A stretch of DNA of 64,000 nucleotides, taken from contig OY969696.1 of NCBI GenBank assembly GCA_963702005.1, positions 3,136,001 through 3,200,000 on the forward strand. Direction: 5' to 3'. Position numbers and translations under genes: made by a program. The stretch comes from Candidatus Aminicenantes bacterium (GTDB lineage Bacteria > Acidobacteriota > Aminicenantia > Aminicenantales > JAFGBC01). Below, piece after piece: positions 1,654 to 23,750 of this stretch (positions are counted from its first letter, which is position 1; every line of letters begins with the position of its first letter). The notes under the pieces are model-generated. The model did not search any database. It was not told where the DNA came from and saw only the letters and a program-made list of their open reading frames with translations.

Positions 1654-1727
1654 CTTTTTCCCAAAACCAGCGGTAATCCCCTCTTTCCCGCAGATTGACT
1701 ATTCGCTTTAATCCCTATCTAAAAGAT

Positions 1728-6354: not shown

Positions 6355-6361
6355 TCCATCG

Positions 6362-6682: not shown

Positions 6683-7120
6683 GGAACCCTCCTAAATCTT
6701 ATAGGAAATAATAGGCTCTTCTGTGATATATCGCAAGGTCTTCCTTATTGACTTCGGGCAATATTTTCGTCTACGCACACTTCATAAAGATAAAATTTTC
6801 TCAGCGGAGATTCAGGTTTCCGCCTGTCTCATCAAGAAGAACTCTTGAATTTTCAGAAATATGATACAATGCATATGGCTTTCTTGAGCCGGCTGGGGAG
6901 AGCCCCCACCTTGATGGTTCCCATCAAAACCCCCCTTTTGCTGACAACAGCCGGCATCTTGGGCATCGAGAAAGCGACATGACTTTCCAGAATTCCAGGG
7001 ACGTTCCAGGGACGAAGCCATGCCAAAACAGACCAATTTTTTCTGCTTACGCCTGTCTTGGCCTAAATTGTTCTGTCAGCGATAAGTCAATCGTATCAGA
7101 GATATAAGAGGCAAAGAGAA

Positions 7121-7186
7121 TGCCGAGGGCCGGACTCGAACCGGCATGGAGCTTACGCCCCGAGGGATTTTAAGTCCCTCGTATCT
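7121..7186 (-). tRNA. tRNA-Leu(TAA) 3' fragment (att-site remnant)
   Basis: Minus strand AGGGA-CTTAAAA-TCCCT anticodon arm, long variable arm, GCCGG-TTCGAGT-CCGGC T-arm, CCTCGGCA; 5' acceptor strand and D-arm absent. Confidence 0.85.
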
Positions 7187-7319
7187 TTCAGGACAGACCT
7201 CTCCCCGTGTAACGCCGGTGTAACAGATTGTGCTAAAACTCGCCTACTTCGGACTAATGGTGCATAAAAGGAAACAAGCCAAACCCAAGGGAAATCAGGG
7301 GAAGAAAGGAACTTAAGGC

Positions 7320-7368
7320 TGGCAGCGCTACGGGGATTCGAACCCCGGTCTGATGGCTGAGAACCACC
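7320..7368 (-). tRNA. tRNA-Glu(CTC) 3' half (att-site remnant)
   Basis: Minus strand GGTGG-TTCTCAG-CCATC..CGGGG-TTCGAAT-CCCCG..GCGCTGCCA; no 5' half. Confidence 0.8.
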
Positions 7369-7440
7369 GCTTAGGCCGTATTGGAAGCGTTTCAGCGTTC
7401 GACACGACAAAAAGTAAACGATTTGCCGGCACTCGTCGGT

Positions 7441-7469
7441 TTGACTTGGCTTCCTTCCTAAGCCATAAT
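7441..7469 (+). promoter_or_regulatory. sigma70-like promoter of the flavodoxin gene
   Basis: TTGACT-N17-CATAAT upstream of AGGAGG RBS. Confidence 0.6.
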
Positions 7470-7493
7470 CGGCAGCGTCCCAGGAGGAATCCG

Positions 7494-7970
7494 ATGCCTA
7501 AAGCCCTCGTTTCCTATTATTCAAGGACGGGAAATACCAAGAAGATGGCCGCCCGGATCGCCGAGGTGCTCGAGTCGCAAGGCCTCGAGGTGGACCTGAA
7601 AACGGTAGCGGACACAGCCCCGGCTGATCTCCTCGGCTACGACTGCATCGTCCTCGGATCCCCAACTTATTACGGCTCCATGGCCTGGGAGATGAAGAAG
7701 CTTCTCGACGAGAGCGTCAAGTTCCACGGGAAGCTCCGGGGGAAGGTCGGCGGGGCTTTCACCTCTTCGGCCAACATCGGAGGGGGCAACGAGACGACCG
7801 TCCTCGATATCCTCCAGGCGCTCCTCATTCACGGCATGGTCGTCCAGGGGGATCACAGGTTCGACCATTATGGCCCTGTCTCGGTCGGCCGGCCCGACAA
7901 GAGGTCGCTCGACTGTTGCGAAGCCCACGCCAAGAACCTGGCCGCCCTAACAAAAAAACTTTTCTCTTAA
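7494..7970 (+). CDS. Flavodoxin / WrbA-family NAD(P)H oxidoreductase
   Basis: YYSRTGNTKKMA, GSPTYYG and GGAFTSS..GGGNETT motifs; start set at ATG 7494 after AGGAGG. Confidence 0.9.
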   Translation: MPKALVSYYSRTGNTKKMAARIAEVLESQGLEVDLKTVADTAPADLLGYDCIVLGSPTYYGSMAWEMKKLLDESVKFHGKLRGKVGGAFTSSANIGGGNETTVLDILQALLIHGMVVQGDHRFDHYGPVSVGRPDKRSLDCCEAHAKNLAALTKKLFS

Positions 7971-8322
7971 ATTCTCGACGCCCCGCCTTGACGGGGGGCT
8001 GTGGGACGCCCGCGGCCTACGCGAGGGCGTTGGAGGGGGTATCCAAGCGCTTTTGCATTATACTGGACCGATTTGAGGGGGGCAGGTCAATGATCAGTCC
8101 CAAACTTACTTGACATCTCATTGCGTTGTGATGTATTCGATCATTTAGGGGAAATTCATTCTGTGTGTAAACACCCACTCGGCTGACACAGCATAAAATG
8201 GATTTCCGTTAAACTATTACGGAAAAGAAGGTGAAGCATCCCCGTTATCCCAACTCCAAGGCTTCCCCACCTCTAGAGCGGAGGGCATGGCTTTAGTTGA
8301 CATATTTGCACAGGAGGCAAAA

Positions 8323-9939
8323 ATGATCAAGAAAGCTTCGGTACTTTTCATTTTTTTGCTTTTTATCCCCTACGGCAACACAGCAAGCGGACAGGATCTT
8401 AGGCTTCCCTATAAGGGTCAAATCTGCAGTGATGACGTTGCATTTAGCATCTTTAGCTTATGCAAAGGCCCTGCGGGCTATTTTTCTATTGAAGACGCAA
8501 AGAATCTTACTAGCACCTTCAAAGCGGACACGAAGGGTCTGGGCACCGCTGCGTATTTCACCATTAAAAATGAAGCCAACAAGAGTTCGGCTATCATGGC
8601 GATAACAAACGGGTTGGGACCTGCGGCGCAATTTTTGACATCAAACGTGAATACCTTTGGAGACACGCTTTTATCCGAGACCCAAGGGCGCGGGAGTTCG
8701 GCCGGGCATTTTGTCACTTCGTCAAATAAAAATATATTTGTGACACTTCGATCAGAAACTTATGGACGGGGGCCGGCAGGCCAATTCGCGGTATTCAATC
8801 CCGATAGCGATGCGAATGCGCTCATTTCCTCAACCGCAGGAATCGGTCGGGCTGGAATATTCACCTGCTACAATAGAGATAATTGGAGCCCGGCATTTCA
8901 AGCTTGGACCTCGGGGAAAGGAGCTGCTGGCTATTTTCAGATTGAAAATCCAAATAACATATTTCCCGCTGTTTATGGAACTTCAAGTGGTTTAGGAAAT
9001 GGTGTGCTTGGCAGCAGCACCGGCTCAAGCGCTGCAGTCCGTGGCTATGCAGATGGCGAAGGGAGCTCAATTTATGGGTATAAAATAGGTAATGGTAACG
9101 CCGGGACCTTCATAAATGGAGATGTAAATAACGAGTCTCCCGCGCTCCGAGTGGAAAACCGTGGGGAGCTTGGTACAGCTGCGATTTTTGAAAACTCAGC
9201 TGCAGCCTGGACCGATAGACCTACGATAGCAGCTATTAACAGAGCTGGTGGTCCTGGTCCGGCCGTGGCAGGATTGTTCTTTGGCTGGGTTGTGGTGCGG
9301 GGAAATTTACGTGCAGATAATGCTGATTTTTGGAACCTTGATGTTTATGGCACACTCACAAAATATTCGGGGAGTTTCAAAATCGACCATCCCTTGGATC
9401 CTGAAAATAAATACCTCTACCATTCATTTGTAGAAAGCCCTGATATGAAAAACGTATACGACGGAGTTGTCGCCTTGGATAAAGCGGGCGAAGCTTGGGT
9501 GAATCTTCCTGATTATTTTGAGGCTTTGAACCGCGATTTTCGCTACCAGCTCACTCCCATTGGTGGGCCCGCCCCCGACCTTCATATTGCGGAGAAGATC
9601 TCAAACAATAAGTTCAAAATCGCCGGAGGCACGCCCGGCTTGGAGGTATCCTGGCAAGTAACGGGAATACGGCAGGATGCTTATGCCAAGGCTCATCCGA
9701 TCATTCCGGAAGTCGAAAAAGAAAAAGAGAACCGTGGCAAATATCTAACACCCGCAGAATTTGGGAAACCGGATGAGTTAGGAATACACCCTAAGAAACG
9801 CGATCAAGAATATGTCAACAAGATATTGACACAATTAGAGAAGCAAAAAGAAACTGATAAGAAAGATATTGACAATTTATCTAAGGCCTTAAAGCTCCTC
9901 AAGGAACAGGGAAAAGTTTCTGATGCAGTGCATAAATGA
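8323..9939 (+). CDS. Secreted Gly/Ala-rich repeat protein with conserved C-terminal domain (GSFKIDHPLDPENKYLYHSFVESPDM)
   Basis: Signal peptide, repeated GxG.AGxF units, AGGAGG RBS; lower GC than host genes. Confidence 0.75.
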   Translation: MIKKASVLFIFLLFIPYGNTASGQDLRLPYKGQICSDDVAFSIFSLCKGPAGYFSIEDAKNLTSTFKADTKGLGTAAYFTIKNEANKSSAIMAITNGLGPAAQFLTSNVNTFGDTLLSETQGRGSSAGHFVTSSNKNIFVTLRSETYGRGPAGQFAVFNPDSDANALISSTAGIGRAGIFTCYNRDNWSPAFQAWTSGKGAAGYFQIENPNNIFPAVYGTSSGLGNGVLGSSTGSSAAVRGYADGEGSSIYGYKIGNGNAGTFINGDVNNESPALRVENRGELGTAAIFENSAAAWTDRPTIAAINRAGGPGPAVAGLFFGWVVVRGNLRADNADFWNLDVYGTLTKYSGSFKIDHPLDPENKYLYHSFVESPDMKNVYDGVVALDKAGEAWVNLPDYFEALNRDFRYQLTPIGGPAPDLHIAEKISNNKFKIAGGTPGLEVSWQVTGIRQDAYAKAHPIIPEVEKEKENRGKYLTPAEFGKPDELGIHPKKRDQEYVNKILTQLEKQKETDKKDIDNLSKALKLLKEQGKVSDAVHK

Positions 9940-9989
9940 TTATGGAACCGGCAGAAAGGCAGAGATCCGACTGCGTGATCGTCTGGCGC

Positions 9990-10215
9990 CTCGGCCCGTA
10001 GTAGCGTAACCCGCTCAAAGACACGGGACGCCGGGGGGCTTCTCCGCCACGAACGGCAACTTCAAGTGTCCGATGATCCGGTCCCCGGCGGCATACTCGG
10101 GGATAAAGGCAGCAACCTTCATTCGGCCGCTACATTTGGGACAGGGCATCGGGTTCACCTCATAGGCCTTCCGGATCATGGCCGTCTAGCCCTTTAGGAA
10201 TACCGTTGGCAGAGA
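9990..10215 (-). pseudogene. C-terminal remnant of IS91/ISCR-family rolling-circle transposase
   Basis: Minus-strand translation KG*TAMIRKAYEVNPMPCPKCSGRMKVAAFIPEYAAGDRIIGHLKLPFVAEKPP matches the WAxMIRKVYEVDPLxCPxCGGxMKxIAFI..HL tail; W replaced by TAG. Confidence 0.7.
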
Positions 10216-10222
10216 GACCAAC

Positions 10223-10437
10223 TTGTGACCAAATTGTGACTATCCCCGGTATATTTCCATATAATTTGGTACACCTCCGTATACCTAGAAACAAGTCATA
10301 AATTGTAGAAAAGACTGACTATTACTTTATAATGAGGAGGTTAGGGAAACCGGCCGGATCGGATTCGAAGTCCATCGCTCTATCCACTGAGCTACGGGCG
10401 CGCCGGAGGCGACGCACGTAAAATCAATAGGATTCTT
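10223..10437. repeat. ~215-bp direct repeat, copy 1 (arm plus tRNA-Arg half)
   Basis: Aligns by eye end to end with 14138-14353; copy at 17636-17748 has an internal deletion. Confidence 0.9.
10361..10401 (-). tRNA. tRNA-Arg(TCG) 5' half, copy 1
   Basis: GCGCCCGTAGCTCAGTGGATAGAGCGATGGACTTCGAATCC, then similarity to tRNA ends. Confidence 0.9.
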
Positions 10438-10731
10438 CCCGATTCCCGGGATGAAGTCAACCCCTTCTACCTCCAGTCATCAGGCTGCACTCACGGGCCG
10501 TTAGCACGGCTCCATGAGTACAGGCGAAGCGCCGGGACTATATAAGGGTAGTCCTGAGCCTTGCGAAGGGCAACTCCCCGAAGCCACGGCTTGAATGCGG
10601 TCCTGAAATAGAAGTCACAATTCGACCAAAATATCCTTCTGGAGCGATGCCGTCTTTAGGGGGGCGTGCTTATGATCCTGGCCGCCGCGATGATCAGGGA
10701 TGAAAATACCGTACCTCAACGCTCCCGCACA

Positions 10732-11232
10732 TCACAGCTCCTGGTCTTTCCAGGCCCCGGTGTATATCGCGGTGCCTTTGCATTCCTGAAGAACGACGTG
10801 ACAGATCCGCATTCCCGGCGTCAGCCTTATCTTATTCCGTCCGGCGTTGTAGATCTCCAGGATCTGCCTGTTCGAGATCCCCGGAGCCAGGAACGGGGCC
10901 GCGATATGGCTCATGAGCCCGATCCGGGCGAATCTCGAGCGCGAATTCAGCCAGCCGCACACGTCCCCGGGGAGAGTGATCCTCTCCTTCGTGATCCCGA
11001 GCACCAGCTCACCCGGCTCCAATAGATAGCCGTCAGTGATGTCCATGAGCTTGGCCAGAGTTTTGTAGTCTATGTCGGCCCTCGTGATGTGCTGGTCGCT
11101 ATTGAAGACGCGCAACTTGTTATCCAACGTCAGATCGATCGACGCGGGGCCGACGGCAGCCTCGTCATAGGGCTCTATCCGGATCCTGCCCTCATGGATC
11201 TGCCGGAGAATTTCGGGTTTCGCCAGGATCAT
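10732..11232 (-). CDS. dcd: dCTP deaminase
   Basis: MIL..EI..I, PASIDLTL, RSRFARIGL, LEIYN..I.LTPGMRIC motifs. Confidence 0.9.
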   Translation of the reverse strand: MILAKPEILRQIHEGRIRIEPYDEAAVGPASIDLTLDNKLRVFNSDQHITRADIDYKTLAKLMDITDGYLLEPGELVLGITKERITLPGDVCGWLNSRSRFARIGLMSHIAAPFLAPGISNRQILEIYNAGRNKIRLTPGMRICHVVLQECKGTAIYTGAWKDQEL

Positions 11233-11525
11233 CTTGAACGCTCTCTCAGGCTCATCATCGAGACCCTCCTTGACCGGAATGCGCGCCGGTCGTGCCATCT
11301 TGGCGACGGGGCGCCGGAACGAGCATCATATGCAAAACCCGAGGGTATTTCAACGGGGAGGGGTCTGCCTTCGCCGCCCTTTCCTCAAGAATATAATAGT
11401 CACAATTTGGTCACAGGATGCATCAGCCGGGGAAGAGCCTCCCCTACTTCTTATTGATAATGCAGGGGGATGAGGGGCTGTACCGGCGCAAGGACGCTGG
11501 AGGGGGTATCCAAGGATCTTGTTTG

Positions 11526-13952
11526 TTATTTCTTCAGCAGTATCTTTGAAGAATACGGAGGAAGGGTGATGCTGCCGCTGACAGCATGATCATCCAGGTC
11601 GTATAAGGTTCGCTGCAGGGCAAATTTCTTTGTTGAATTTGTTTTATTGATAAATATCAAATTACGCTTCAATGGGTCATCGTACAAGACTTTGACTTTC
11701 TGTAGGCAGATATTATCCAGCCAGTAATCCGGCGCATTCGCGTTGACATCATAATCTATGCGAGCAGGGTCAGTCCTGTAAGTGGGCGTAAAAATTATCC
11801 TATGGTCTTTTCGTTTTGAATCGACAAAGACGGTTTTATGCATTTCTAAATTCCCATAGGTTGTTGCGTCCCTTGTTTGCACGTCCACTGTGCCGGGCGC
11901 CAGAGCAATCGTGCTGAATGAGAGTTCGTATGCTTGCCCCGCCTCTAGGCCAAAATAGTTATGATTATTGCAGGCGACGCCATCATAACAGTGCAGGTGC
12001 CAGCTTCCATTGTTTAATTGATCGTTGATACCCCAGGATGAAGTGCAAGTATTGGTGGGCGACCAGCACGCCCAGCCGTCTATATTAGAATTAAAATCTC
12101 CATTCACAATGAGGTTGCCGCTTTCTATATCTATCACGGAATAAGCATTCCAGCTGACATGGCTGGACTTGGCGCTCGCATCTTTTAGGGCCTTCCACTG
12201 ACTGACCGTATACAAGAGATAGCGGTTGACTTTGTTCTTTTGGCTTATTGTAGAAATAGATAATTCATTGTAGGGGCTGCAATAATAGTTACCGGCATAA
12301 GTCGCGAAATCCAAATTCCTGTTCTCCCAATTGGTAAGCATCAAGGGATAACTATCTTCATCCACAGAATATAATATATTTTTCACAATCGTATTGTTTG
12401 ATACGGGAGTCGTGCTAATACTATCCTGGCTCATTAATATCGATCCGCCTTGGCAGTTAAATAGCGTATTTCCGTTGATCGTATTGTTGATACTGTTGTG
12501 CAGAAAAATGCCCGCGGCCGCGCAATTGACGACGGTATTATTCTGGATAAGAGCATTGCCGCTGCCATCGTCCATATAGATCCCGTCCGCACCACCAGTT
12601 TTGTCCGGCGTAGCCTGATAATTCCCGATTCCATTTTGGATAACATTATTGCGGATAACGCAGCCTGTCCCATTACGGTTGATATGGTCGTTATTACTCC
12701 AGGTATAAATGGCGGCGCCATCGTCGGTGGTCAGGCAAAACTTATTTATCAGATTATTTTCAATCCGTGTATTCTTTGAATATTTCAAACCACAATAGCC
12801 GATGCTATCCAGGCTATTAAAACTGATATTTCCATTATCGATATCGCCTTCGATCTGCATAGCGTAATAGCCAATCTCATCTTTGGTGGCCCTGCCTGCA
12901 TATAAGCCGATACGCTTTAATGTATTGTTCTGAACAATGATATTCTTACAATCCCATGTACTTATCCCCATTCCGCAAATATCCGTAATGATATTATTTT
13001 TAATGAGAACATTATCAACGCTCTGAAGAAATATAGCTTTTGAATAGATCGCATTGAAACGGCATTGCTGGATAGAAATATCGGTATAACCGTAATCCGC
13101 ATTCACTCCATTGACCTGCTGGTGCCTGAAACTGATATGGCTGATGTGGATATAGCTTACGTGCTCTATATTAATTCCATACTCGTATACGGAAGCTTCT
13201 GATGAACTGTTTGAAGGCAAAGAAGCTGACCACAGGTAGAGTTCTTGTTGTGATGGATTGAAATAAAATTCACCGGCCGTATCTAAGGCTTCCATTTTAT
13301 TGCTTAAGAAATAGCCCCAGCCGTTTGTAAAATCATATTCTATCGGGTTGGTCATGGTGATATTGCCATCGGCAAATGACTCCACTTCGTGTTCGCCATA
13401 TTGCCAGCGTACCATGCGGTTGTGAAGTGTGGCGCCGTTCCAGTATCCCTTCGTTTGCGTTAATTCCGCATCGTAAAAGCCCTTTTTGCCGTTGGCCTTG
13501 TCAATCGTTAAAAAGCCACTGTTGGGATAGCGCGCGGGCAGGCACAGCGTACTGTTATAAAAAACCATTACGGGATTTATCTTCAAGGCAGCTTTATAAA
13601 TCTTGCCTTTGTGTAGTGACCAGTTGTTGACATATTCACTGCCGCTGATTACAGGTAAAGCGCCATTGCCATAAGAGGTGATGATGATGGGCTGTGAGGC
13701 AGTGCCGGACTGCTTAATATTCAACTGCCCACGAAATGTATCGCCGCGCTTAAATAATATATTATCTCCTGGTCTCAATGCGATCGTATTAAGTTTAGCA
13801 ATTGTTTTGAATGGCGTCTTTGATGAAGTGCCGTTGTTGTGATCGTTGCCATTAGCGGCGATATAATAATCTGTTGCATAGGCTTGCAGGGATGCAGCAA
13901 GAAGGAAAATGAAAACCACAATTTTTTTTATGAATTTCCATTTATTCGGCAC
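11526..13952 (-). CDS. Secreted right-handed parallel beta-helix protein with C-terminal carbohydrate-binding-like domain
   Basis: Signal peptide, YYIAANGND.N.GTS..PFKT, PbH1 repeats (GIYMDDGS), NLIVNGDF module; AT-rich. Confidence 0.85.
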   Translation of the reverse strand: MPNKWKFIKKIVVFIFLLAASLQAYATDYYIAANGNDHNNGTSSKTPFKTIAKLNTIALRPGDNILFKRGDTFRGQLNIKQSGTASQPIIITSYGNGALPVISGSEYVNNWSLHKGKIYKAALKINPVMVFYNSTLCLPARYPNSGFLTIDKANGKKGFYDAELTQTKGYWNGATLHNRMVRWQYGEHEVESFADGNITMTNPIEYDFTNGWGYFLSNKMEALDTAGEFYFNPSQQELYLWSASLPSNSSSEASVYEYGINIEHVSYIHISHISFRHQQVNGVNADYGYTDISIQQCRFNAIYSKAIFLQSVDNVLIKNNIITDICGMGISTWDCKNIIVQNNTLKRIGLYAGRATKDEIGYYAMQIEGDIDNGNISFNSLDSIGYCGLKYSKNTRIENNLINKFCLTTDDGAAIYTWSNNDHINRNGTGCVIRNNVIQNGIGNYQATPDKTGGADGIYMDDGSGNALIQNNTVVNCAAAGIFLHNSINNTINGNTLFNCQGGSILMSQDSISTTPVSNNTIVKNILYSVDEDSYPLMLTNWENRNLDFATYAGNYYCSPYNELSISTISQKNKVNRYLLYTVSQWKALKDASAKSSHVSWNAYSVIDIESGNLIVNGDFNSNIDGWACWSPTNTCTSSWGINDQLNNGSWHLHCYDGVACNNHNYFGLEAGQAYELSFSTIALAPGTVDVQTRDATTYGNLEMHKTVFVDSKRKDHRIIFTPTYRTDPARIDYDVNANAPDYWLDNICLQKVKVLYDDPLKRNLIFINKTNSTKKFALQRTLYDLDDHAVSGSITLPPYSSKILLKK

Positions 13953-14003
13953 CTGTTCATCCTCTCCTTAAAGCTCGGAATTTATGCCTTCCATCCCGAG
14001 ATG

Positions 14004-14033
14004 ATGCTACTCTCGGCCGCGCGTCGATGTCAA
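14004..14033 (-). promoter_or_regulatory. Cassette-borne sigma70-like promoter
   Basis: TTGACA-N18-TAGCAT; homologous to 17505-17534. Confidence 0.6.
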
Positions 14034-14275
14034 GAAATCCTCGGAACGGCCAAGAAGAGTATACTTGGGGCGAAAAACCCTCCTGGACCGACTGAAAGAT
14101 GATAGACTCCAGCTTCCCTTGATAATAGGATGATCAATTGTGCCCAAATTGTGACTGTCCTCGGTATATTTCCATATACTTTGGTATACCTCCGTATACC
14201 TAGAAATAATTCATAAATTGTAGATAAGACTGACTATTACTTTATTTTGAAGAGGTTAGGGAAACCGGCCGGATC

Positions 14276-14316
14276 GGATTCGAAGTCCATTGCTCTATCC
14301 ACTGAGCTACGGGCGC
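14276..14316 (-). tRNA. tRNA-Arg(TCG) 5' half, copy 2
   Basis: One substitution versus copy 1; same breakpoint. Confidence 0.9.
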
Positions 14317-14406
14317 GCCGGAGGCGAGGGACGGAAAAGCAACTAGGATTCTTGAGGTTTACCTGCTTGGAGCGGCCGGAATATTGGGGTTGTTTTGGCC
14401 GGGTGT

Positions 14407-15234
14407 TTATTGTTCAGCGTCCGCTTTTTTCCTTCGCTTAATAATATTTTTTGAACCGATTCTTTTCAAGACCGGCATTACAACAAAGAATATTCTGGGA
14501 AAGGCCATGACCGTCCGGGCCAAAACACCCATGCCCGAAGGCACCACGATCTCCGGTTTCTTGCTGTCTGCGGCCCTGAGGATCGCCGAAGCCACCTTTT
14601 CGGGTTTCATCGCCTCTCCGATGAAGGAGAGCACGGCCTCGTCATGAAGAAGCTCATAGCGCAGCTGGGCCGTTTCCACGGAATCAGGACAGACCACGGT
14701 CACTCGAATCCCGGTTTCCTTCAGCTCGGCCGCCAGGGAAAAAGAATAACCCCGGATGGCCGCCTTGGTGGCGCTATAGACGGCTTCGCCGGGCATGGGA
14801 ACGATTCCGCCCAGGGAAGCCACATTGATGATCTTCCCGGAGTTCTGTTTCTTCATGACGGGCAAAACAGATCGGCAGCCATGGATATTCCCCATGAAGT
14901 TGACGGAAATCTGCTGGTGAATTTTCGGCCAGGGGATGGTCTCGGCCCCCCCGGGATGGACGACGCCCGCGTTATTGACCAGGATATCGATTCGACCATA
15001 GCGCTCGAGGACCTTTTCGACCATCGTCCGCCAGGACTCGGGATCCGTCACGTCGTGCTCGATCCCCTGAGCCTCGATCCCCTCTTTTTTCAACTCATTT
15101 TCCAGAGAATCGAGAGGTTCTTTGCGGATGTCCGCAAGAATAAGGACGGCCCCCTCTCGGCCCAGGCGACGGGCCGTGGCCGAGCCGATTCCTCCGGCCG
15201 CTCCGGTGATGATCACGACTTTGTTTTTGACCAA
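14407..15234 (-). CDS. SDR family oxidoreductase
   Basis: TGAAGGIG, NNAG and YSATK motifs. Confidence 0.92.
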   Translation of the reverse strand: MVKNKVVIITGAAGGIGSATARRLGREGAVLILADIRKEPLDSLENELKKEGIEAQGIEHDVTDPESWRTMVEKVLERYGRIDILVNNAGVVHPGGAETIPWPKIHQQISVNFMGNIHGCRSVLPVMKKQNSGKIINVASLGGIVPMPGEAVYSATKAAIRGYSFSLAAELKETGIRVTVVCPDSVETAQLRYELLHDEAVLSFIGEAMKPEKVASAILRAADSKKPEIVVPSGMGVLARTVMAFPRIFFVVMPVLKRIGSKNIIKRRKKADAEQ

Positions 15235-15405
15235 CGGAGTCCTCCTCTAGTAAGTTATTTCGGCCGCGAGCCTGTTCGACAACTCGCTTTTAAGGATTTT
15301 ACCAAACCTGACAAGAAAATATAAGAATCCAGAATTTCGCAAGCCTGTAGGCTTCGACTCCGCTTAATTTAACGGGAGGGGATAGGGGAAAACGGGAATC
15401 TGGGG

Positions 15406-15450
15406 TGGTGGAGCTGATGGGACTTGAACCCACGACCTCTTGACTGCCAG
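15406..15450 (-). tRNA. tRNA-Ala(GGC) 3' half
   Basis: CTGGCAG-TCAAG-AGGTC-GTGGGTTCAAGTCCCAT-CAGCTCCACCA; starts exactly at the anticodon loop. Confidence 0.88.
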
Positions 15451-15527
15451 GGGAACAGTCACAATTTAGTCACAATCAGCTTCTGAGGTCAGCATCCCTC
15501 CCCTCTTTTCCTTAATAATATTGGAGA

Positions 15528-17498
15528 TCAAGGGCGCTGTGGGCGTGAGGGCGTTGGAGGGGGTATCCAATGACTATAGAGGGCGACAATCTCGAAATTG
15601 GCGGTGATCGTCTTGGGACCGTTCATCGTTATCTTCAAAGGATTCTGAAGGCTGGAGATGCTGCCGCTCCAATTCCGAAACTTGCAGCCGGCTTTAGGGA
15701 GGGCGCTCAGGGTGAGCTGGGTTCCGGCCGGGACATAAAAGACGCCAGCCCCGAGATCGGTGCGCCCGTGCGTATTCGCAGCGATCGTGAGCTTGTGGAA
15801 ACGCACGCCCCCCTTCTGTCTCTCATAGGCGCCGATATCCGTTACAGCCGTGCCATCGCCGTTCCCGTCCGCGCCCCGGGGATATCCGGCCAGATCGAAT
15901 GCCCCCGGATCCGTTCCGCTCGTCGCCCCCATGTCGATCGCAGGAGAGGTGGCGTGGAGACTGTAATCCGTCTGCGCCGGAGCGACAAACTGGGGCGACA
16001 GATAAAAGTTCCCGTTGCTCCCCCGATATCGCGCGTCTCCGAGGATACAATTTCGGACCAGGGCCGGCCTTTTGGAACCGACGATCCGGTCGTTATTCCG
16101 GTTTTTCCAAAGGATGGTGTTGGCGATTTTGATGCCGGAAACGACGTTTCCGAAACTGTTGTTATTGTTTTCGATGTTGATGCCGCCCGCCCAATCCGTG
16201 GTTTTCCCGTTCTCGACCAAGGTGTTGTTCAGAAGCGTAACGTCCCTTACGATATTATTGTCGCTGTTATCGAATCCGCCCAGCAAAACCATGCCCGCTC
16301 CGTCGTTTCGGGCGATCAGGTTATTGGCAAACTTGATCTTTTCGACCGTGTTATTCTTGGCCTTAAAGGATGCGCCCTGAATCTGAAAGCCGTTGAAGAC
16401 GCAATTCAGGATCTTGTTCCGGTTGATGAGGACATCGTCGATGCCATTGTCGTGGCCGGACATGGAGCCGCCGACCAGCATGATCGATCCTTTTACAACG
16501 ATATTTCCCTCGATGGTCGCGTGAGAGACGTGATTATCCTTGGCGTCCTTTCCCACGCCGCCGAGGACCTCGATCCCACAGTCACCCTCGGGGTTCTGAA
16601 TATAATTGTTCCTGATGAAGAGGCTTTCGATTCGGTTTCCCTGGGATTTGGAGCAGTTGGCGCCGGAGATAAGGATGGACGTGCCCTTGTGACCCCGGAT
16701 CGTGTTGTCCAAAATCTCCAGATCGGAGATGACGTTGTTTGTCGCGTTCGGCCGGGTCGCGGAGGCGAAGATGGCTCCGGTGTTGTTGCTGTTATTGGAA
16801 ATCAGATTACCCCGGATGGTGATGTTGGCGATCCGGTTGTTGGAGTTGGTCGAGGTACCTATCGCGGTGTCGATGGTGATGCCCCAACTCCCGTTGTTGA
16901 CAAGGCGGTTCTGGAGGACATCGATGTGATTGACGACCCGGTTCGAACCCGAAGCAGCGATAGAGATTCCCGACCATCCGACGGTGATCGTGTTTCCGAG
17001 AAGGGTCACCCGTTCTACCCGCGACACGCCATCTTCGGCGAAAGCCGCGACCGTAATCCCGGTCCATTCGATATCCCGGATCGTGAATCCGGCGATCGTG
17101 ACGTCGGAAGCCGTGATCCAAAAACAATCATGGGCCGTTCCCTGTCTGCCATCGAGGGTGATATCCGGCTTGCCGTCGTTGTCGATATCGCCGTTGATTT
17201 TCAGACCACCCTTTGTCAAAGCCGGCAACCCGTCGGAGACGGAGATGGTGGCGCCCTTCAAAGACGGATCGAAGCTGATCGAAAGGGATTCCACCGCGGC
17301 ATTGGCCGCGAGCATAGCTTCCCGGAGCGAGATTCCATCAGGCCCCGGGTCGTTGACCAGTGCGTCCGGACTTGATGTGTCCCCGTTCACCGTGTCGCTA
17401 TTGTTTGTAACGCGCAACGAGCTCACTTGGCTGGCCGGCGCGAAGGAGAAGAAAACGAGAATGCCTATCCATGTCGATATTCGGAGCTGGAGGGACAT
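15528..17498 (-). CDS. Secreted beta-helix protein with choice-of-anchor-Q-like and InlB-B-repeat-like C-terminus
   Basis: SLREAM.AAN, Asn-rich PbH1 repeats, SPAID.G..DIGAYE, F.NWSG..ITANF; start moved to ATG 17498. Confidence 0.8.
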   Translation of the reverse strand: MSLQLRISTWIGILVFFSFAPASQVSSLRVTNNSDTVNGDTSSPDALVNDPGPDGISLREAMLAANAAVESLSISFDPSLKGATISVSDGLPALTKGGLKINGDIDNDGKPDITLDGRQGTAHDCFWITASDVTIAGFTIRDIEWTGITVAAFAEDGVSRVERVTLLGNTITVGWSGISIAASGSNRVVNHIDVLQNRLVNNGSWGITIDTAIGTSTNSNNRIANITIRGNLISNNSNNTGAIFASATRPNATNNVISDLEILDNTIRGHKGTSILISGANCSKSQGNRIESLFIRNNYIQNPEGDCGIEVLGGVGKDAKDNHVSHATIEGNIVVKGSIMLVGGSMSGHDNGIDDVLINRNKILNCVFNGFQIQGASFKAKNNTVEKIKFANNLIARNDGAGMVLLGGFDNSDNNIVRDVTLLNNTLVENGKTTDWAGGINIENNNNSFGNVVSGIKIANTILWKNRNNDRIVGSKRPALVRNCILGDARYRGSNGNFYLSPQFVAPAQTDYSLHATSPAIDMGATSGTDPGAFDLAGYPRGADGNGDGTAVTDIGAYERQKGGVRFHKLTIAANTHGRTDLGAGVFYVPAGTQLTLSALPKAGCKFRNWSGSISSLQNPLKITMNGPKTITANFEIVALYSHWIPPPTPSRPQRP

Positions 17499-17504
17499 TA
17501 ATTC

Positions 17505-17534
17505 ATGATATTCCCGGCCGTGCGGGGGTGTCAA
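17505..17534 (-). promoter_or_regulatory. Cassette-borne sigma70-like promoter
   Basis: TTGACA-N18-TATCAT, 6 nt upstream of ATG 17498. Confidence 0.6.
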
Positions 17535-17647
17535 GAAATCCTCGGGACGGCCAAGGCGCGATTATCAGGAAATAAACCTTCCTGCGCCGCCCAAATTACA
17601 GCTGACTTATACTCCCCGTGATCATGAGATGATAATTGTGGCCAATC

Positions 17648-17688
17648 GGATTCGAAGTCCATTGCTCTATCCACTGAGCTACGGGCGC
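17648..17688 (-). tRNA. tRNA-Arg(TCG) 5' half, copy 3
   Basis: Identical to copy 2; preceded by TTGACT-N17-AAGAAT at 17748-17720. Confidence 0.9.
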
Positions 17689-17766
17689 GCCGAAGGCGAG
17701 GGACGGAAAAGCAACTAGGATTCTTCCCGATTCCCGGGACGAAGTCAAGCTAGACTTAAATCCAGT

Positions 17767-19899
17767 TCAATTTATTTTGAGCTTCGCGACGAAAGCGTCC
17801 GTGTAGCCGCCGGCGTTCCCGGCCTGGTACGGGTTGAGGACGGGCAGGTCGATGCTGTTCGTGAAGCCCGTCAGGAAAATCCCGCCCTGGGCATCCAGCT
17901 CTAGTCCCGAAAGCGCGTCCGAATAGGACCCTCCGAAGAGCGTGGAAAAGTACAGGCTCCGCCCGTCCCGCGAGAAGGCGGTCAGAAAACCGTCCCAGGT
18001 CCCCGACTTAGCGGCCTTGATGGCGTTTTTGACCGGGAAATAGACGCTGCTCGTCTCGCCCACGACATAGGCGCGCCCGTCGGCGTCGACCTTGAGGTCA
18101 AACGGAATCTCCTCGCCTTCCCCTCCCAGGTAGGTCGCATAGACGAGGGTCTTCCCGTCCGGACCGACCTTGGCTAAGAAGGCGTCGGCGGCTCCCGACC
18201 GGTTCTTGCGGAAAGCGTTCTTGACCGGGATGGTGCCGTAGGTGTATCCCGTTATATAGGCCGCGCCTTGGCCGTCGACCGCGACCGAGCAGCCGAACTC
18301 CATATTGGGACCACCCAGGTAGCTGCAGTATTCGAGATCGCCTCCGGACGGCGCCAACTTGAGGATGTACGCGTCGGTAAAGCCGCCGCCGTACTTTTTC
18401 TGGAACGCGTTCTTGACCTGCAGGTTCAAGGTGCCCGTCGACCCGATCGCGTAGACGGCCCCGGCGGCGTCGACCTTCAAGTCCGCAATCGAATTGTAGA
18501 ACCATCCGGACAGGCCAAGATCGTTCTCGTAGACCTTGGTCTTCCCATCGGCCTCGAGCTTCAGGATAAAGATGTCTGCCCCGCCGCCGATGACGCCCCG
18601 GTTGACAGGACCCCTGAACCCGCCATTGCCCTTTAGCCCCCCCAGGTAGAGAGCGCCCTTGGCGTCGACCGCCAGGGCCTCTACGGATTCCTGAAACGGG
18701 CCGCCGAGGTACGAGGAAAAGACCAGGCTTTTTCCGTTGGGGGCCAGCTTGAAGAAGAAGCCATCCATCCATCCGCCGCCGTATTTCGGCTGGTAGGCGT
18801 TTTTGACGGGGAAATGCTCGTTGTCAGTCATCCCCCCGAGGTAGGCGGCGCCCGACGGGTCGACTTTGAAGAGCGCCGCGCCGGAGTGCAAGAAGGTGTC
18901 GATGTTAACGCCGTTGAGCGGCCTGCTCCGAAGCGCGACCGGATCGGCCAGGACGCTTTCGGTCTTGCTCGCGGCCCCGATAAATCCCCAGAACCCGGCC
19001 GGGAAAAATGCCGAATACACCAGGCTCTTGCCGTCCGGCGCAAGCTTGGTGATGTAGGCGTCTATGCGCGGCTTATGGGCTTTGTTAGGGGGAAAATCGA
19101 TGCTGTCCGTGTATCCCGTGACATAGACCGCGCCGCTCGGGTCGATGCCGATCCCCCAAGCGTTGTCCATGGTTCGGCCGCCAAGGTAGGTCGAAAAGAC
19201 GAGGACTAACGGATCGATCACGAGCTCGCGGCCCCGATCATAGGGGCCCAATTCGAAACCGTAAGCGCCGCCGCTCAGGGGCCGGAACGCCGCCTCGACC
19301 TCGACGTGAGTTCCGTCGACGACCTGATAAGCGCGCGGCTTCTGGTGCTCGAGCTCGCCCGCGGCGGATTTGACGACAATCCCGCCGTCCCGATCGAGGC
19401 GGGCCTGGACGTTCCCCTCATAGCCGAACCGGATCTGACCCGGATCGGAGCCGGGCCGGACGATCCAGTCGTACTCGACCGTCTTCGCGGTCCCAAAGAC
19501 CTTGAGGTCGACACCCTCATAGACACCGCGGTAGAAAACGCCCCGCGACGTCGGGATGCCGGTGTGCCAGTCCGTCTCGTCCCGTCCGTCGAAATAGCTC
19601 ACATAATAGTCCGCCGGGTCGACAGCCCGGACCTCCACACCCGGCCGGACGTTCTCGAGGATCATCCGTGCCCCGTCGAAGAGCAGCTCGCGCCGGGTCA
19701 GCCGGAGCGTGTAGGCCGGCGTCTTGGCGTAATAAAGGGTCTCGGCATCGGTCTGCCCCTGGTTGGCGATGAAATAGAGCGGGACATCGCCGAAGCCGGG
19801 CTCGGCTTGGACCGGGAGCGTCTGTCCCGGCCGCGCCGTCGAGAGCGCCGCGACCAGGAGCAATAGACCGAGCGAAGCTGGGATGATAAGCTTTTTCAT
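17767..19899 (-). CDS. Secreted SBBP beta-propeller repeat protein, paralog A
   Basis: Signal peptide, PLYFIANQGQ N-domain, LVIDP, repeated STYLGG..AVD..G.AY.TG.T.S..FP. Confidence 0.9.
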   Translation of the reverse strand: MKKLIIPASLGLLLLVAALSTARPGQTLPVQAEPGFGDVPLYFIANQGQTDAETLYYAKTPAYTLRLTRRELLFDGARMILENVRPGVEVRAVDPADYYVSYFDGRDETDWHTGIPTSRGVFYRGVYEGVDLKVFGTAKTVEYDWIVRPGSDPGQIRFGYEGNVQARLDRDGGIVVKSAAGELEHQKPRAYQVVDGTHVEVEAAFRPLSGGAYGFELGPYDRGRELVIDPLVLVFSTYLGGRTMDNAWGIGIDPSGAVYVTGYTDSIDFPPNKAHKPRIDAYITKLAPDGKSLVYSAFFPAGFWGFIGAASKTESVLADPVALRSRPLNGVNIDTFLHSGAALFKVDPSGAAYLGGMTDNEHFPVKNAYQPKYGGGWMDGFFFKLAPNGKSLVFSSYLGGPFQESVEALAVDAKGALYLGGLKGNGGFRGPVNRGVIGGGADIFILKLEADGKTKVYENDLGLSGWFYNSIADLKVDAAGAVYAIGSTGTLNLQVKNAFQKKYGGGFTDAYILKLAPSGGDLEYCSYLGGPNMEFGCSVAVDGQGAAYITGYTYGTIPVKNAFRKNRSGAADAFLAKVGPDGKTLVYATYLGGEGEEIPFDLKVDADGRAYVVGETSSVYFPVKNAIKAAKSGTWDGFLTAFSRDGRSLYFSTLFGGSYSDALSGLELDAQGGIFLTGFTNSIDLPVLNPYQAGNAGGYTDAFVAKLKIN

Positions 19900-20127
19900 G
19901 CGATCCTCCTTAATTCCTGAAAAATTTTTCTTTTTTAGAATTTTATCGCCATTCCCTTCGCCATGTCAACCCCTCGACACCCATACTAAGCCGTTTCCGG
20001 CTTAGTATGAGGTAACATGATAGCGGAACGCACCTCCCTGACGAGTAACGCTGTGATACATTACTCGATGAATAAGAATCTCATAAGGAGGTGCGCGGCA
20101 GCCTTGCAGTACTCAGGGCTTCCATGA

Positions 20128-21165
20128 GTGATGTATTTTATAGGCGTAGACCATCACAAGCAAGTCTCGGTGATGACCGTCTTGGACGAGGATGGCCGGG
20201 AGCTGAGAAACGGTCGAGTGCTCAACCTGAGGAAAGAGCTGGGACGATTCCTGGAAGGATACCATCCGTTTACGGCTGTAATAGAGGCTGGCCGGTCGTC
20301 GTACGTTATGGCGGATCTCCTCCGGGAACTGGGCGGCGAGGTGAAGATGGCGAATGCGCTTCAGGTGAAAGCGATTGCGCATGCCCGGATCAAGACGGAC
20401 AAGCGCGATTCGAGGACGCTGGCCATGCTTCTGCGGGCAGGGCTGATTCCAGAGATCTATCAAAGGGAGGAGAGGAACCGGCGGGCGCAACGGGTGATGA
20501 GGATACGGGCTTATTGGACGCGCAAGCAAACGGAAGTCAAGAACAAGATCCGGGCGCTTTTAGCTCAGCAGAAAGAGGAAGTCCGGCTGGAAGTGGAAAA
20601 GCGGGAAGGGGGACTCTTCAGGACGAGGGGGTTGGAGTTTTTGACCAGGTTGTCGCTGGAGGGCCAGGACAAAATGGTTTTGGACGACCTGCTCCAGGGA
20701 TACAAGGAGGCCCAAGCTCATATCAGGAAGTCGGACGGACTCGTTCGTGTCCTGTATGGCGAGATCGAGGAAGCCTCTCGCATCGACAGCGTGCCGGGGT
20801 TTGCTACGACGTTGTCGGTCTTGGTGGCGGTCGAGATCGCCGACGTCCGGCGATTTTCCAGGCCGGCGGATCTTCATTCCTACGCCGGGGTGATCCCTTC
20901 GACCTACTCCTCGGGAGAGCGGACGGTTCACGGACACATCACCAAACAGGGGAACGCTTGGCTGAGATGGGCGGCCCTGGAAGCGGTCTATCCGGCGATC
21001 AAAAAAGACCTTGGGCTTCGGACTCTCTACAGCCGGCTGGCCAAAAGGAAGGGCCCGAACGCGGCCAAGATAGCGGTGGCCCGCCGGCTCCTGACCATCG
21101 TCTATCGAATCCTGACCGAGAACAGGACCTATATCCCAGACAGGATGAATCCCTCGGCTGCCTAG
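20128..21165 (+). CDS. IS110-family DEDD recombinase
   Basis: IGVDHHK, IEAG, KTDKRDS, SVPGF, YAGVIPS..SSGE..ITKQGN..LRW, AVARRL. Confidence 0.95.
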   Translation: MMYFIGVDHHKQVSVMTVLDEDGRELRNGRVLNLRKELGRFLEGYHPFTAVIEAGRSSYVMADLLRELGGEVKMANALQVKAIAHARIKTDKRDSRTLAMLLRAGLIPEIYQREERNRRAQRVMRIRAYWTRKQTEVKNKIRALLAQQKEEVRLEVEKREGGLFRTRGLEFLTRLSLEGQDKMVLDDLLQGYKEAQAHIRKSDGLVRVLYGEIEEASRIDSVPGFATTLSVLVAVEIADVRRFSRPADLHSYAGVIPSTYSSGERTVHGHITKQGNAWLRWAALEAVYPAIKKDLGLRTLYSRLAKRKGPNAAKIAVARRLLTIVYRILTENRTYIPDRMNPSAA

Positions 21166-21320
21166 AGCAGTACTTAACGGACTCGCGAGAGTCGCGTTCT
21201 CTATGAGGTTTAGGAGCCGAGACCGGATACTACAGTGCGCTCATAGGCGCGGATAGAAGGGTGGTTCAAGAAACCGAGGCAGCCATGAGGAGAAAGAATA
21301 AAAAAATGGCTTGCGGGGCT
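21166..21320 (+). ncRNA. Putative bridge/seek RNA of the IS1111-type element
   Basis: GCAGTACTT (21167-75) is the reverse complement of right junction 21339-47; TATGAGGT (21202-09) equals left junction 20006-13; GACTC-GCGA-GAGTC hairpin between them. Confidence 0.6.
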
Positions 21321-21473
21321 TGCGTTCCGCCATCATAGAAGTACTGCAAGGCTGGGCTTAGTGTCGGCGAACGGGTCAAGATAGAGCAGGGTTGTTTTCT
21401 CGGGCCGAGGTGACGATGGCCTCCCGGACGGCGTCCGTGACGATGGTATGGACGGAGACGACGTAGATCCGGT

Positions 21474-23606: not shown

Positions 23607-23750
23607 GCAATCCTCCTTAACTCCCGAATAATTTACTTATTTTATTTTATAGCCATTCCCCTCGCCACGTCAAGGCAGGGTATGCGGAGGTATACAAGTT
23701 GAAGTATCGGGCAATTTATTCGCGACTTTCCACCGTCAGCCGAACGGGTC

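Follow-up and report, generated by a model that had tools for sequence, protein, structure and literature searches.

The window analyzed here, a 64,000-nucleotide stretch of the genome of a Candidatus Aminicenantes bacterium, carries on its minus strand three co-oriented copies of a 41-nt string that corresponds to positions 1 to 41 of the genome's tRNA-Arg(TCG) (Table 1). Copy 1 is identical to the intact gene at 41 of 41 positions, and copies 2 and 3 each agree at 40 of 41, with the same single change. As a preliminary description of this DNA had reported, all three follow the intact gene as far as TCC and stop at position 41, 3 nt beyond the anticodon loop. ARAGORN calls no tRNA at any of these 5′ halves, and their Rfam tRNA scores (23.4 to 25.2 bits) fall below the gathering score of 29. 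The single tRNA-Arg(TCG) gene of this genome, at 3079782-3079855 of the contig (minus strand), is located 66 kb from the copies, downstream in tRNA orientation, with a fourth fragment in between. All four minus-strand 5′ fragments (contig positions 3081669, 3146361, 3150276, and 3153648) are upstream of the intact gene and co-oriented with it, and each begins at tRNA nucleotide 1 and matches at 40 or 41 of 41 positions. Eight copies are present in the whole genome; the dispersed copies at 1792570, 2367913, and 3531406 are not upstream of their cognate intact gene.

Table 1. Features of the three tRNA-Arg(TCG) junctions and the units between them, in tRNA orientation (window coordinates).
Feature	Position	Strand	Remark
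Copy 3 promoter-like site (TTGACT-N17-AAGAAT) and 31-nt leader	17689..17748	-	Directly after the stop of a 710-aa DUF7948/SBBP gene
Copy 3 5′ half (positions 1-41, G26A)	17648..17688	-	Outermost fragment; far boundary of the composite island
Arm X remnant at copy 3: GAT, then last motif repeat (TGGCCACAA)	17636..17647	-	126 nt between them deleted
Terminator-like hairpin, then TTGACA-N18-TATCAT promoter	17505..17556	-	Precedes the 668-aa cargo gene
Cargo gene of the copy 3-copy 2 unit: 668-aa protein, C-terminal InlB B-repeat (PF18998)	15528..17534	-	
Conserved unit end: inverted P-type motif (15457-15475; TTGTGACTAAATTGTGACT in tRNA orientation) and ~80 nt	15457..15573	-	
tRNA-Ala(GGC) 3′ fragment, positions 32-76, 97.8% identical	15406..15450	-	6 nt from the P-type motif
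Short-chain dehydrogenase (SDR) gene, 275 aa	14407..15234	-	Between the Ala fragment and copy 2
Copy 2 leader, -10 element only	14317..14353	-	-35 region missing in this genome
Copy 2 5′ half (G26A)	14276..14316	-	
Arm X at copy 2 (P′-type): four GTATAC-type and two G(T/G)CACA repeats, ~11 bp apart, behind an A/T-rich block	14138..14275	-	
Terminator-like hairpin, then TTGACA-N18-TAGCAT promoter	14004..14056	-	Precedes the 808-aa cargo gene
Cargo gene of the copy 2-copy 1 unit: 808-aa right-handed beta-helix protein	11526..13952	-	
Conserved unit end with perfect inverted P-type motif (11398-11416)	11398..11516	-	
dCTP deaminase gene (dcd), 188 aa	10732..11298	-	Between the P-type motif and copy 1
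Degenerate P-type motif with a single good GTCACAA repeat	10613..10632	-	
Copy of a dispersed ~125-nt intergenic repeat	10456..10581	.	Inserted directly upstream of the copy 1 -35 element
Copy 1 promoter-like site (TTGACT-N17-AAGAAT) and leader	10402..10460	-	
Copy 1 5′ half (41/41 versus the intact gene)	10361..10401	-	
Arm X at copy 1 (P′-type), ending GTCACAATTTGGTCACA	10223..10360	-	

The upstream promoter-like sites of copy 1 (10460 to 10432) and copy 3 (17748 to 17720) agree with the consensus at 9 of 12 positions. At copy 2, similarity ends at 14353, directly upstream of AAGAAT. The preliminary description had noted the promoter at copies 1 and 3 and the cut at copy 2, and both points hold. 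The loss at copy 2 is strain-specific decay; metagenome contigs from related strains (runs X2 and X4) carry the full copy 2 promoter, then 17 nt, then position 14354, with a joint from 17750 to 14354. The intact gene, whose upstream region had been singled out for comparison, lacks the promoter and leader that copies 1 to 3 share (92 to 99% identical), and so does the fourth fragment. The promoter at copy 3 is probably the original chromosomal promoter of tRNA-Arg(TCG), and beyond it a GC content typical of the genome resumes. The dispersed repeat next to the copy 1 promoter has 15 further matching places in the genome.

On the other side of each 5′ half is the sequence that we call arm X. The 138-nt arm common to copies 1 and 2 sits within a larger 205-nt repeat (10223-10427 and 14138-14342, 92% identical), and the alignment of copy 3 with copy 2 has one 126-column gap within the arm that spares the last motif repeat, in keeping with the earlier estimate that about 130 bp are absent there. 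A metagenome contig from a related strain joins 17635 to 10223, the end of arm X; this joint is weakly documented, by one contig from one run. The arm contains four GTATRC and two GGTCACA direct repeats spaced ~11 bp apart. Their variants co-vary by lineage, with GTATAC in some genomes and GTATGC in others, and the arm starts at the same tRNA position in all copies. A 17-nt arm motif is more frequent than chance would give, with 15 genome matches at ≤3 mismatches compared with 0 for the reversed control. The outward GTCACAATT motif near 10614, which had been suggested as the other arm, is indeed present, but it is degenerate, and the motifs that begin at 11398 and 15457 are clearer inverted partners. 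About 80 nt of the unit end that holds the latter are 72% identical to 11438-11516. The distance from P-type motif to 5′ half is 0.65 to 1.2 kb in this genome, with the dcd or SDR gene between, versus ~60 to 110 nt in relatives.

The two units between the junctions of the window are short (3.4 and 3.9 kb), with one large secreted-protein gene apiece. The dCTP deaminase gene is the sole match of its protein in a tblastn search against its own genome, and GC around the 808-aa gene is 42 to 43% over the surrounding 12 to 14 kb. From the intact gene to copy 3, a 74-kb interval is foreign in composition, with a GC content of 48.3%; the 40-kb flanks have 60.0% and 60.3%. When window positions 6000-24000 were compared with two genomes of the same genus, only repeats, the arm, and genes beyond copy 3 gave DNA matches. 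Genes matching the tyrosine integrase family PF00589 occur in only one of the four intervals between fragments, which is 64.7 kb long (3091140, 3109245, and 3128743), and none adjoins a junction. The other three, copy 3 to copy 2 (3.4 kb), copy 2 to copy 1 (3.9 kb), and fourth fragment to intact gene (1.85 kb), contain no PF00589 or PF00239 match.

The three 5′ halves are most likely the junction scars of mobile elements that inserted successively into the tRNA-Arg(TCG) gene. More specifically, we consider it likely that they are tandem att scars of integrative elements that target the anticodon loop and restore the tRNA 5′ end, most of which are now devoid of an integrase. Such elements would recombine with tRNA-Arg genes in or beside the anticodon loop and end up upstream of the gene. 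Because the attP would carry an arm-type motif, a promoter, and a tRNA 5′ half on its P side and the 138-nt arm X on its P′ side, integration would rebuild a working gene whose promoter and 5′ half come from the element and whose 3′ half is that of the chromosome. The older promoter and 5′ half would be displaced and end up joined to arm X. A series of insertions, perhaps with later unequal exchange between repeats, would yield the order copy 3, copy 2, copy 1, fourth fragment, intact gene. In refinement of the attP-like junctions suggested earlier, the junctions would be attL-type or hybrid scars, and most of the intervals are without integrase; the short units of the window, which have none, might be decayed elements or cargo-only elements moved in trans. 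The arrangement of the fragments, the foreign base composition, the unit's conservation in several genomes, the phased repeats of the arm, and an integrase clade of matching geometry are all observed; the crossover in the anticodon loop and the order of arrival of the elements are inferred. Several features speak against the model in its simple form. Three of the four intervals have no integrase, copies 1 to 3 share a promoter and leader that the intact gene lacks, the P-type motif is farther from the 5′ half than in relatives, and the three dispersed copies do not lie upstream of their intact gene. The copy 3-copy 2 unit, moreover, has an Arg 5′ half at one end and a tRNA-Ala 3′ half at the other, a combination that one simple integration cannot produce. 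The tRNA-Ala(GGC) fragment represents the classical kind of att scar, that of a tRNA 3′ end. We saw neither an empty site nor a circular junction nor an excision product; metagenome contigs of related strains show joints at repeat borders but no circular form.

In a local segmental duplication, unequal crossing-over would have made two or three copies of one scar (promoter, 5′ half, and arm) with its neighborhood, these would have decayed afterward, and no separate integrations would be needed. The promoter and leader common to copies 1 to 3 and absent from the intact gene also fit local duplication or gene conversion. The units behind copies 2 and 3 also share their P′ end up to the cargo promoter, where the hairpin and promoter module at copy 3 is 84% identical to 14004-14054, as well as the ~80-nt P end, and neither contains an integrase. 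However, the cargo is unrelated (BLASTP finds no match between the 808-aa and 668-aa proteins, and dcd bears no relation to the SDR gene), and the arm copies differ from each other by 8 to 9%, about as far as each differs from the distant copy at 1792570. Moreover, the unit and the array geometry recur in other families with different cargo. Local duplication is thus an unlikely explanation of the whole, and at most it accounts for the expansion step, not for the origin of the scars.

The case for successive integration draws in good part on related genomes. The 5′ half and arm unit has 21 arm-bearing matches, at 68 to 84% identity, in 9 of 40 related genomes and 5 of 9 families, where the arm is joined to Arg(TCG) or Arg(CCG) halves. 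Co-oriented arrays upstream of an intact gene are found in G028 (two units, then the gene) and G017 (four units, then tRNA-Arg(CCG)). In G017, each of the three dispersed units is preceded, on the same strand and at a distance of 0.9 to 2.1 kb, by a tyrosine integrase gene. Of the 20 integrases in genome_contigs that are most closely related to these, 13 are encoded 40 to 122 nt ahead of an intact co-oriented tRNA gene, and a convergent tRNA gene follows none of them. At three loci of this integrase clade, 5′ fragments covering positions 1-41, 3-41, and 1-44 lie 2.6 to 5.6 kb upstream. We inspected by eye the arms of three integrase-bearing elements with 5′ fragments: L040 has paired 11-bp direct repeats in each arm ~100 to 135 nt from the crossover, L115 has related TGTGRC-type motifs in both arms, and no arm repeats stood out in L082. 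Mobility is supported by a cassette of unit plus kinase gene that two genomes of different genera, G017 and G023, have in common (91% identical over 1635 nt, 97% over 913 nt). Of three scanned loci of relatives with an intact tRNA-Arg gene, two (L025 and L032) have the inverted motif ~60 and ~107 nt upstream of the gene and one (L037) has none. The motif also lies upstream of four unit copies, whereas a genome-wide scan of the present genome (G000) found none next to its own intact gene, the nearest being ~5 kb away.

The phased repeats have a ready counterpart in lambda-type attP, which carries arm-type sites for heterobivalent tyrosine integrases. As there, direct repeats about one helical turn apart are found ~100 to 140 bp to either side of a short core, and phased motifs are present on both sides. 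The putative core here is a palindromic anticodon stem with a 7-nt loop, and the repeats of the two arms are mutually inverted, although they are direct in the related L040; binding by an integrase is putative. We infer that the arm repeats may bind the integrase. The arm could conceivably serve instead as an array of operators through which a transcription factor controls the downstream gene, the tRNA half being a passenger. A response regulator that binds 11-bp-phased direct repeats is an example of such a factor. The ~11 bp phasing would suit this function, as would the inverted motif copies upstream of dcd and the SDR gene and the presence, at 8 of the 21 copies, of a Ser/Thr kinase gene in first or second place among the co-oriented genes behind the arm. 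Nevertheless, a regulatory module of this kind is very unlikely, given that the downstream genes at the other 13 copies are non-kinase and widely varied, that the arm always starts at one tRNA position, and that the inverted motif is found upstream of intact tRNA-Arg genes. The repeat pairs at ~100 to 135 nt from the crossover in both arms of L040, the only closely examined element with clear pairs, likewise speak against it, as does the separate strong promoter between arm and cargo gene in the window.

The preliminary description had weighed tandem att junctions against a SINE-like, tRNA-headed RNA, in which the promoter drives a chimeric transcript of 5′ half and arm that is functional or spreads as a repeat. 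The promoter-like sites retained at copies 1 and 3, the conservation of a 180-nt unit, and the terminator-like hairpins after the arm at copies 2 and 3 would be expected of such an RNA. Yet the RNAalifold consensus of the 21 copies reaches only -6.68 kcal/mol over 189 columns, with a covariation term of -1.35, and double changes occur in just 4 of 20 predicted pairs, so that the conserved fold with covariation expected of a structured RNA is not seen. In addition, this genome holds only 8 copies, and the promoter is lost or truncated in several. Because there is no conserved fold, because the arm matches no Rfam family, and because its phased direct repeats are typical of protein-binding DNA, this half of the earlier interpretation is not supported and seems highly improbable. 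The other half, tandem att junctions of a 5′-restoring element, is favored by where the intact gene lies, by the break in GC at copy 3, by the arrays elsewhere, by the inverted motif upstream of intact tRNA-Arg genes in relatives, and by the geometry of the integrase clade.

If the scars are those of integrative elements, the units without integrase might constitute a cassette system that is moved in trans by an integrase encoded elsewhere and stacked at tRNA-Arg genes, a proposal that we regard as possible but doubtful. One or two cargo genes would lie between the P′ end (arm X and the terminator/promoter module) and a conserved P end consisting of motif, promoter, and tRNA 5′ half. Candidate examples of 2.7 to 3.9 kb occur in this genome and in G022, G033, and G010. 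In operation such a system would closely resemble an integron array, although a tRNA gene would be its base. The units also resemble CIMEs, which are cis-mobilizable elements formed by accretion next to integrative elements, a term that comes from streptococcal ICEs using the 3′ end of a protein-coding gene. Like CIMEs, the units here are short att-bounded segments without recombinase genes, stacked beside an integration site; mobilization in trans is putative.

Integration that leaves a tRNA 5′ fragment is the rarer geometry, as had been stated at the outset: Table 1 of the Islander report (Hudson, Lau and Williams 2015, PMC4383910) gives 159 of 3919 islands with a 5′ fragment and 3760 with a 3′ fragment. 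Under the correct-side rule, which we took from the Islander configuration filter, a 5′ fragment belongs upstream of its tDNA, and all four fragments lie there. As in the islands that this report describes, foreign DNA separates an intact tDNA from end fragments of the same tDNA, which lie upstream of it in the same orientation. The tandem stacking, and fragments that stop just beyond the anticodon loop, likewise match its islands with anticodon-centered att sites. The tandem arrays that it lists, including four of at least three members, are required to have an integrase in each member, whereas three of four intervals here have none; four fragments in a row are rare by that listing. Relative to the islands described there, the element in our case must supply the promoter, and the arm family spans several families of an uncultured lineage and two Arg isoacceptors. 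In the account given of Prochlorococcus tycheposon islands (Hackl et al., 10.1101/2020.12.28.424599), arrivals at the tRNA site push older elements inward, and degenerate remnants, together with additional partial tRNAs, are found dispersed within the island. Both traits are shared with the region studied here, which differs from tycheposons as portrayed there in host lineage, arm sequences, and cargo (here Ser/Thr kinases and large secreted repeat proteins).

Successive insertion with a new promoter and 5′ half each time is a known but uncommon route of island growth, and this locus works through one case of the uncommon, reversed geometry in which elements integrate at tRNA genes, leaving the general understanding of island formation unchanged. 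This reading accounts for a 74-kb low-GC region and for several tRNA fragments at risk of being miscalled by annotation pipelines. As a practical probe, the conserved 138-nt arm can serve to find the element family in uncultured relatives, together with its cargo of Ser/Thr kinases and large secreted repeat proteins. If the cassette proposal is true, each cassette must carry a promoter that keeps the host's sole tRNA-Arg(UCG) gene expressed. If the model of stacked integration is true, that single gene would now be transcribed from the promoter and 5′ half of the last element to arrive.

The only tRNA-Arg(TCG) gene of the Candidatus Aminicenantes genome under study (G000, GCA_963702005.1) is intact, and its positions 1-41 recur at three sites in the window, termed copies 1, 2, and 3 (see table). 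This 41-nt string spans the acceptor strand, the D arm, the 5′ strand of the anticodon stem, the loop with TCG, and three further bases. At the three copies, no tRNA is called by ARAGORN and Rfam gives only sub-threshold tRNA scores. A split tRNA or an intron was rejected because the intact gene is present and none of the copies is followed by a matching 3′ half. With 40-41 of 41 positions identical, the 5′ halves and common cut point reported in the preliminary description are borne out, as are two further details of that report. Specifically, TTGACT-N17-AAGAAT lies upstream of copies 1 and 3 whereas copy 2 retains only the -10 element and leader, and the loss of about 130 bp of arm from copy 3 appears as a single 126-column gap, inside the arm, in its alignment with copy 2. 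Similarity between these two restarts at the last motif repeat and runs to a common hairpin-plus-promoter module. Two other promoter-like sites, opposite the tRNA half, use GTGACT of the arm motif as -35 and TATAAT or TATACT as -10, and are directed into the antisense of the tRNA half. An intergenic repeat of ~125 nt, inserted beside the copy 1 promoter, is found at 15 further places in the genome, including a cluster of six near 1.489 Mb.

Features of the array, the genome, and related loci (window coordinates unless G000 or a locus is named)
Feature	Location	Strand	Detail
Copy 1, 41-nt 5′ half	10361-10401	minus	identical to intact gene positions 1-41
Copy 2, 41-nt 5′ half	14276-14316	minus	sole difference from intact gene G26A
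Copy 3, 41-nt 5′ half	17648-17688	minus	sole difference from intact gene G26A
Fourth 5′ fragment	G000 3081669
Intact tRNA-Arg(TCG) gene	G000 3079782-3079855	minus
Arg(CCG)-linked arm copy	G000 3531230-3531406
Promoter-like sites	10236-10265; 14151-14180	plus
~125-nt intergenic repeat	10456-10581
tRNA-Leu(TAA) gene	7121-7209	minus	second intact gene
tRNA-Glu(CTC) 3′ fragment	7320-7368		positions 28-76, 100% identical
tRNA-Ala(GGC) 3′ fragment	15406-15450		positions 32-76
710-aa genes	17767-19899; 21474-23606		DUF7948, SBBP, PD40 repeats
Second arm family	G000 3079679-3079756; 1789926-1790101; 347301-347378; 2217394-2217478
tRNA-His composite	L009:10852-11210; L034:12440-12810
tRNA-Ala(GGC) with arm-like stretch	G000 3870934-3871309		intact gene
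tRNA 5′ fragment	L040		positions 1-41
tRNA 5′ fragment	L082		positions 3-41
tRNA 5′ fragment	L115		positions 1-44
Tandem repeat array	L118 3001-3090

The window occupies positions 3136001-3200000 of G000. Read in the orientation of the tRNA, copy 3 comes first, followed by copy 2, copy 1, a fourth fragment, and the intact gene, with successive spacings of 3.4, 3.9, 64.7, and 1.85 kb. Between the intact gene and copy 3, GC content is 48.3%; the 40 kb on either side have 60.0% and 60.3%, and it is at copy 3 that GC climbs back to the genome-typical level. Three tyrosine recombinase genes occur in the 64.7-kb interval, together with an AEP-like primase, a patatin-like gene, and an rve transposase, and a recombinase is absent from all three short intervals. 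We consider it probable that the copies are stacked att scars of integrative elements that enter the anticodon loop and restore the 5′ end of the tRNA. The preliminary description had proposed a comparison with the intact gene, and the promoter common to copies 1-3 is absent from it and from the fourth fragment. This detail fits poorly, and might reflect sibling elements, gene conversion, or unequal exchange.

Several observations concern the island and its edge. Window positions 1-7000 have a GC content of 36-44% in a 60.4% GC genome, and no other part of the 64.7-kb interval is as foreign. A 550-aa ORF (8287-9939) was rejected as a novel recombinase, as it has no Pfam match and is unlike a 560-aa ORF beside the unit copy at G000 1792570. 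Two paralogous 710-aa genes lie just outside the island. In G001, a genome of the same genus, many places match the short stretches at 20008-20097 and 21222-21343 with 80-91% identity, often at contig ends (about 18 contigs for the latter). The two stretches probably represent the termini of an insertion sequence or of some other dispersed repeat.

When the promoter, 5′ half, and arm were searched together against 40 relatives, the tRNA part matched almost everywhere, and 21 matches in nine genomes of five families included the arm (68-84% identity). Depending on the genome, the arm is joined to Arg(TCG) or to Arg(CCG) halves, and one Arg(CCG)-linked copy resides in G000 itself. Two units (5′ half plus arm) lie ahead of the intact tRNA-Arg(TCG) gene, on the same strand, in the relative G028, and four lie ahead of the intact tRNA-Arg(CCG) gene in the relative G017. 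G017 and G023, two genomes of different genera, have in common a unit-plus-kinase cassette with 91% identity over 1635 nt and 97% over 913 nt, and this likeness argues for a recent transfer. Within the window, copies 1 and 2 both lead into one 138-nt arm (arm X), and the enclosing 205-nt repeat is 92% identical between them. Set beside the matches in nine genomes, an origin of the copies by local duplication seems unlikely.

Alignment of the 21 copies reveals a variable ~15 nt past the junction, then conserved blocks TAACCTCC and AAAGTAATAG, four GTATRC repeats, and two nearly invariant GGTCACA repeats, with all six repeats spaced by about 11 bp. The arm motif bears a resemblance to a Pho box, and a Pho-box-like role would be at most a candidate reading. 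GTATAC and GTATGC variants switch together within a lineage, the pattern expected if the sites co-evolve with a protein that binds them. Because RNAalifold yielded almost no common structure for the 21 copies (-6.68 kcal/mol, covariation term -1.35), the arm is more suggestive of a function at the DNA level. Of the two readings in the preliminary description, tandem att junctions are the best explanation; a SINE-like, tRNA-headed RNA, to which the promoter-like sites might lend some appeal, is very improbable given the near lack of a common fold. A regulatory DNA module would accommodate the phased repeats, and we give it little credence beside the tRNA cut point shared by the copies.

A second arm is also predicted for the att scar reading. 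The 17-nt motif of the arm, inverted, is located about 60 and about 107 nt upstream of the intact tRNA-Arg genes of G028 and G017, where it directly precedes a conserved promoter (TTTACA ... TGTAATAT), and it is also upstream of four unit copies. This is the expected place of the second attP arm, whose P side would carry the promoter and 5′ half. A transposon with terminal inverted repeats was considered, since copies 1 and 2 and the 1792570 copy are flanked by inverted motif pairs; it was rejected on two grounds, as the interiors show no relationship and the motifs sit 105-140 nt inward of the junctions. The 18-nt motif is present in 16 IMG/VR stretches, sometimes as tandem 11-bp repeats or beside tRNA-His, and these stretches match the motif only and not the arm, so they offer at most a hint. 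One viral contig (L118) carries three GTTCACACTTT repeats and, after them, six or more GGTCACAATTT repeats in tandem, with the same 11-bp motif in iteron-like use.

At each of three G017 units outside the array, a tyrosine integrase gene lies 0.9-2.1 kb upstream on the same strand, and two of the three proteins are 43% identical to each other. Genome contigs were searched with an alignment of these integrases, and the best 80 loci were kept. In 13 of the 20 most similar loci, the integrase gene is followed after 40-122 nt by an intact tRNA gene on its own strand, and in one more the distance to a co-oriented tRNA is 1257 nt. The other six loci lack a tRNA, and a convergent tRNA is seen in none of the 20. 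The classical convergent arrangement occurs at 26 more distant loci within the best 80. Furthermore, three loci with a co-oriented, integrase-adjacent tRNA (L040, L082, and L115) carry a 5′ fragment of that tRNA 2.6-5.6 kb upstream, and three convergent loci carry 3′ fragments. By eye, a pair of 11-bp direct repeats is visible in each arm of L040 and related TGTGRC-type motifs in both arms of L115, and no arm repeats stood out in L082. With co-oriented tRNAs and 5′ fragments ending at 41-44 at these loci, there is thus an integrase clade that gives exactly the cut point and geometry of the window.

Other details fit poorly. In G000, the inverted motif is 0.65-1.2 kb from the 5′ half, with the dCTP deaminase gene dcd or a short-chain dehydrogenase gene in between, and tblastn of the dcd protein against the genome matches only its own locus. 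The motif is also 6 nt from a tRNA-Ala(GGC) 3′ fragment, and thus the copy 3 to copy 2 unit has an Arg 5′ half at one border and an Ala 3′ half at the other. We can account for this only through a secondary rearrangement involving related att scars. Three copies (1792570, 2367913, and 3531406) do not lie upstream of their cognate genes. A second arm family with classical 3′ geometry and similar repeat architecture adds to the mosaic. Its copies follow several tRNA genes (Arg(TCG), Glu(CTC), and Asp), and its repeats, three of ATTARGC type and two of GTTACA, are spaced by about 11 bp, which is the architecture of arm X with other motifs.

Further tRNA-linked sites were noted. Inside the low-GC island, a tRNA-Glu(CTC) 3′ fragment lies just upstream of a tRNA-Leu(TAA) gene, and its arm is 79-81% identical to the sequence following two tRNA-Glu copies near 1.79 Mb; this site (7121-7369) is a scar of classical 3′ geometry. 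A composite conserved between G000 and G023 comprises tRNA-His (or its 3′ part), ~100 nt, TGTGACATATTTGTGACATGG, ~30 nt, an Arg anticodon stem-loop, and an arm. Elsewhere in G000, tRNA-Ala(GGC) is followed by an arm-like T-rich stretch and a gene opening with a zinc-ribbon motif, resembling the Ser/Thr kinases that follow arm X at other sites.

Decay of the array can be compared with related strains. Metagenome contigs from four runs (X1-X4) have 90% likeness, represent other strains, and cover the stretch in pieces only. In two runs, contigs join 17750 to 14354 via 17 extra letters, and a full promoter is therefore retained at copy 2 of those strains. In a single contig, 17635 is joined to the distal end of arm X, and copy 3 of that strain therefore retains its arm. 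Joints 10182>14014 and 14266>17777 were left out because of short sides or a register that does not agree with the repeats. For decay in G000, the contigs are supportive only.

Table 1 of Islander counts 3760 islands that carry a 3′ fragment against 159 that carry a 5′ fragment, which agrees with the earlier remark that duplication of a 5′ half is the rarer geometry; it also counts 2083 anticodon-centred sites, 125 tandems of at least two, and four of at least three (PMC4383910). As Islander describes its rules, the order of the fragments and the intact gene is a configuration accepted for islands that displace a 5′ fragment (PMC4383910). In the account given by the tycheposon work, incoming elements push older ones into the island and partial tRNAs are left behind (bioRxiv 10.1101/2020.12.28.424599). 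Given these counts and this description, the finding belongs to a kind already known. What is unusual here is how long the 5′ array is, that its units hold one gene and no integrase, that the element brings the promoter, and that the arm is broadly conserved.
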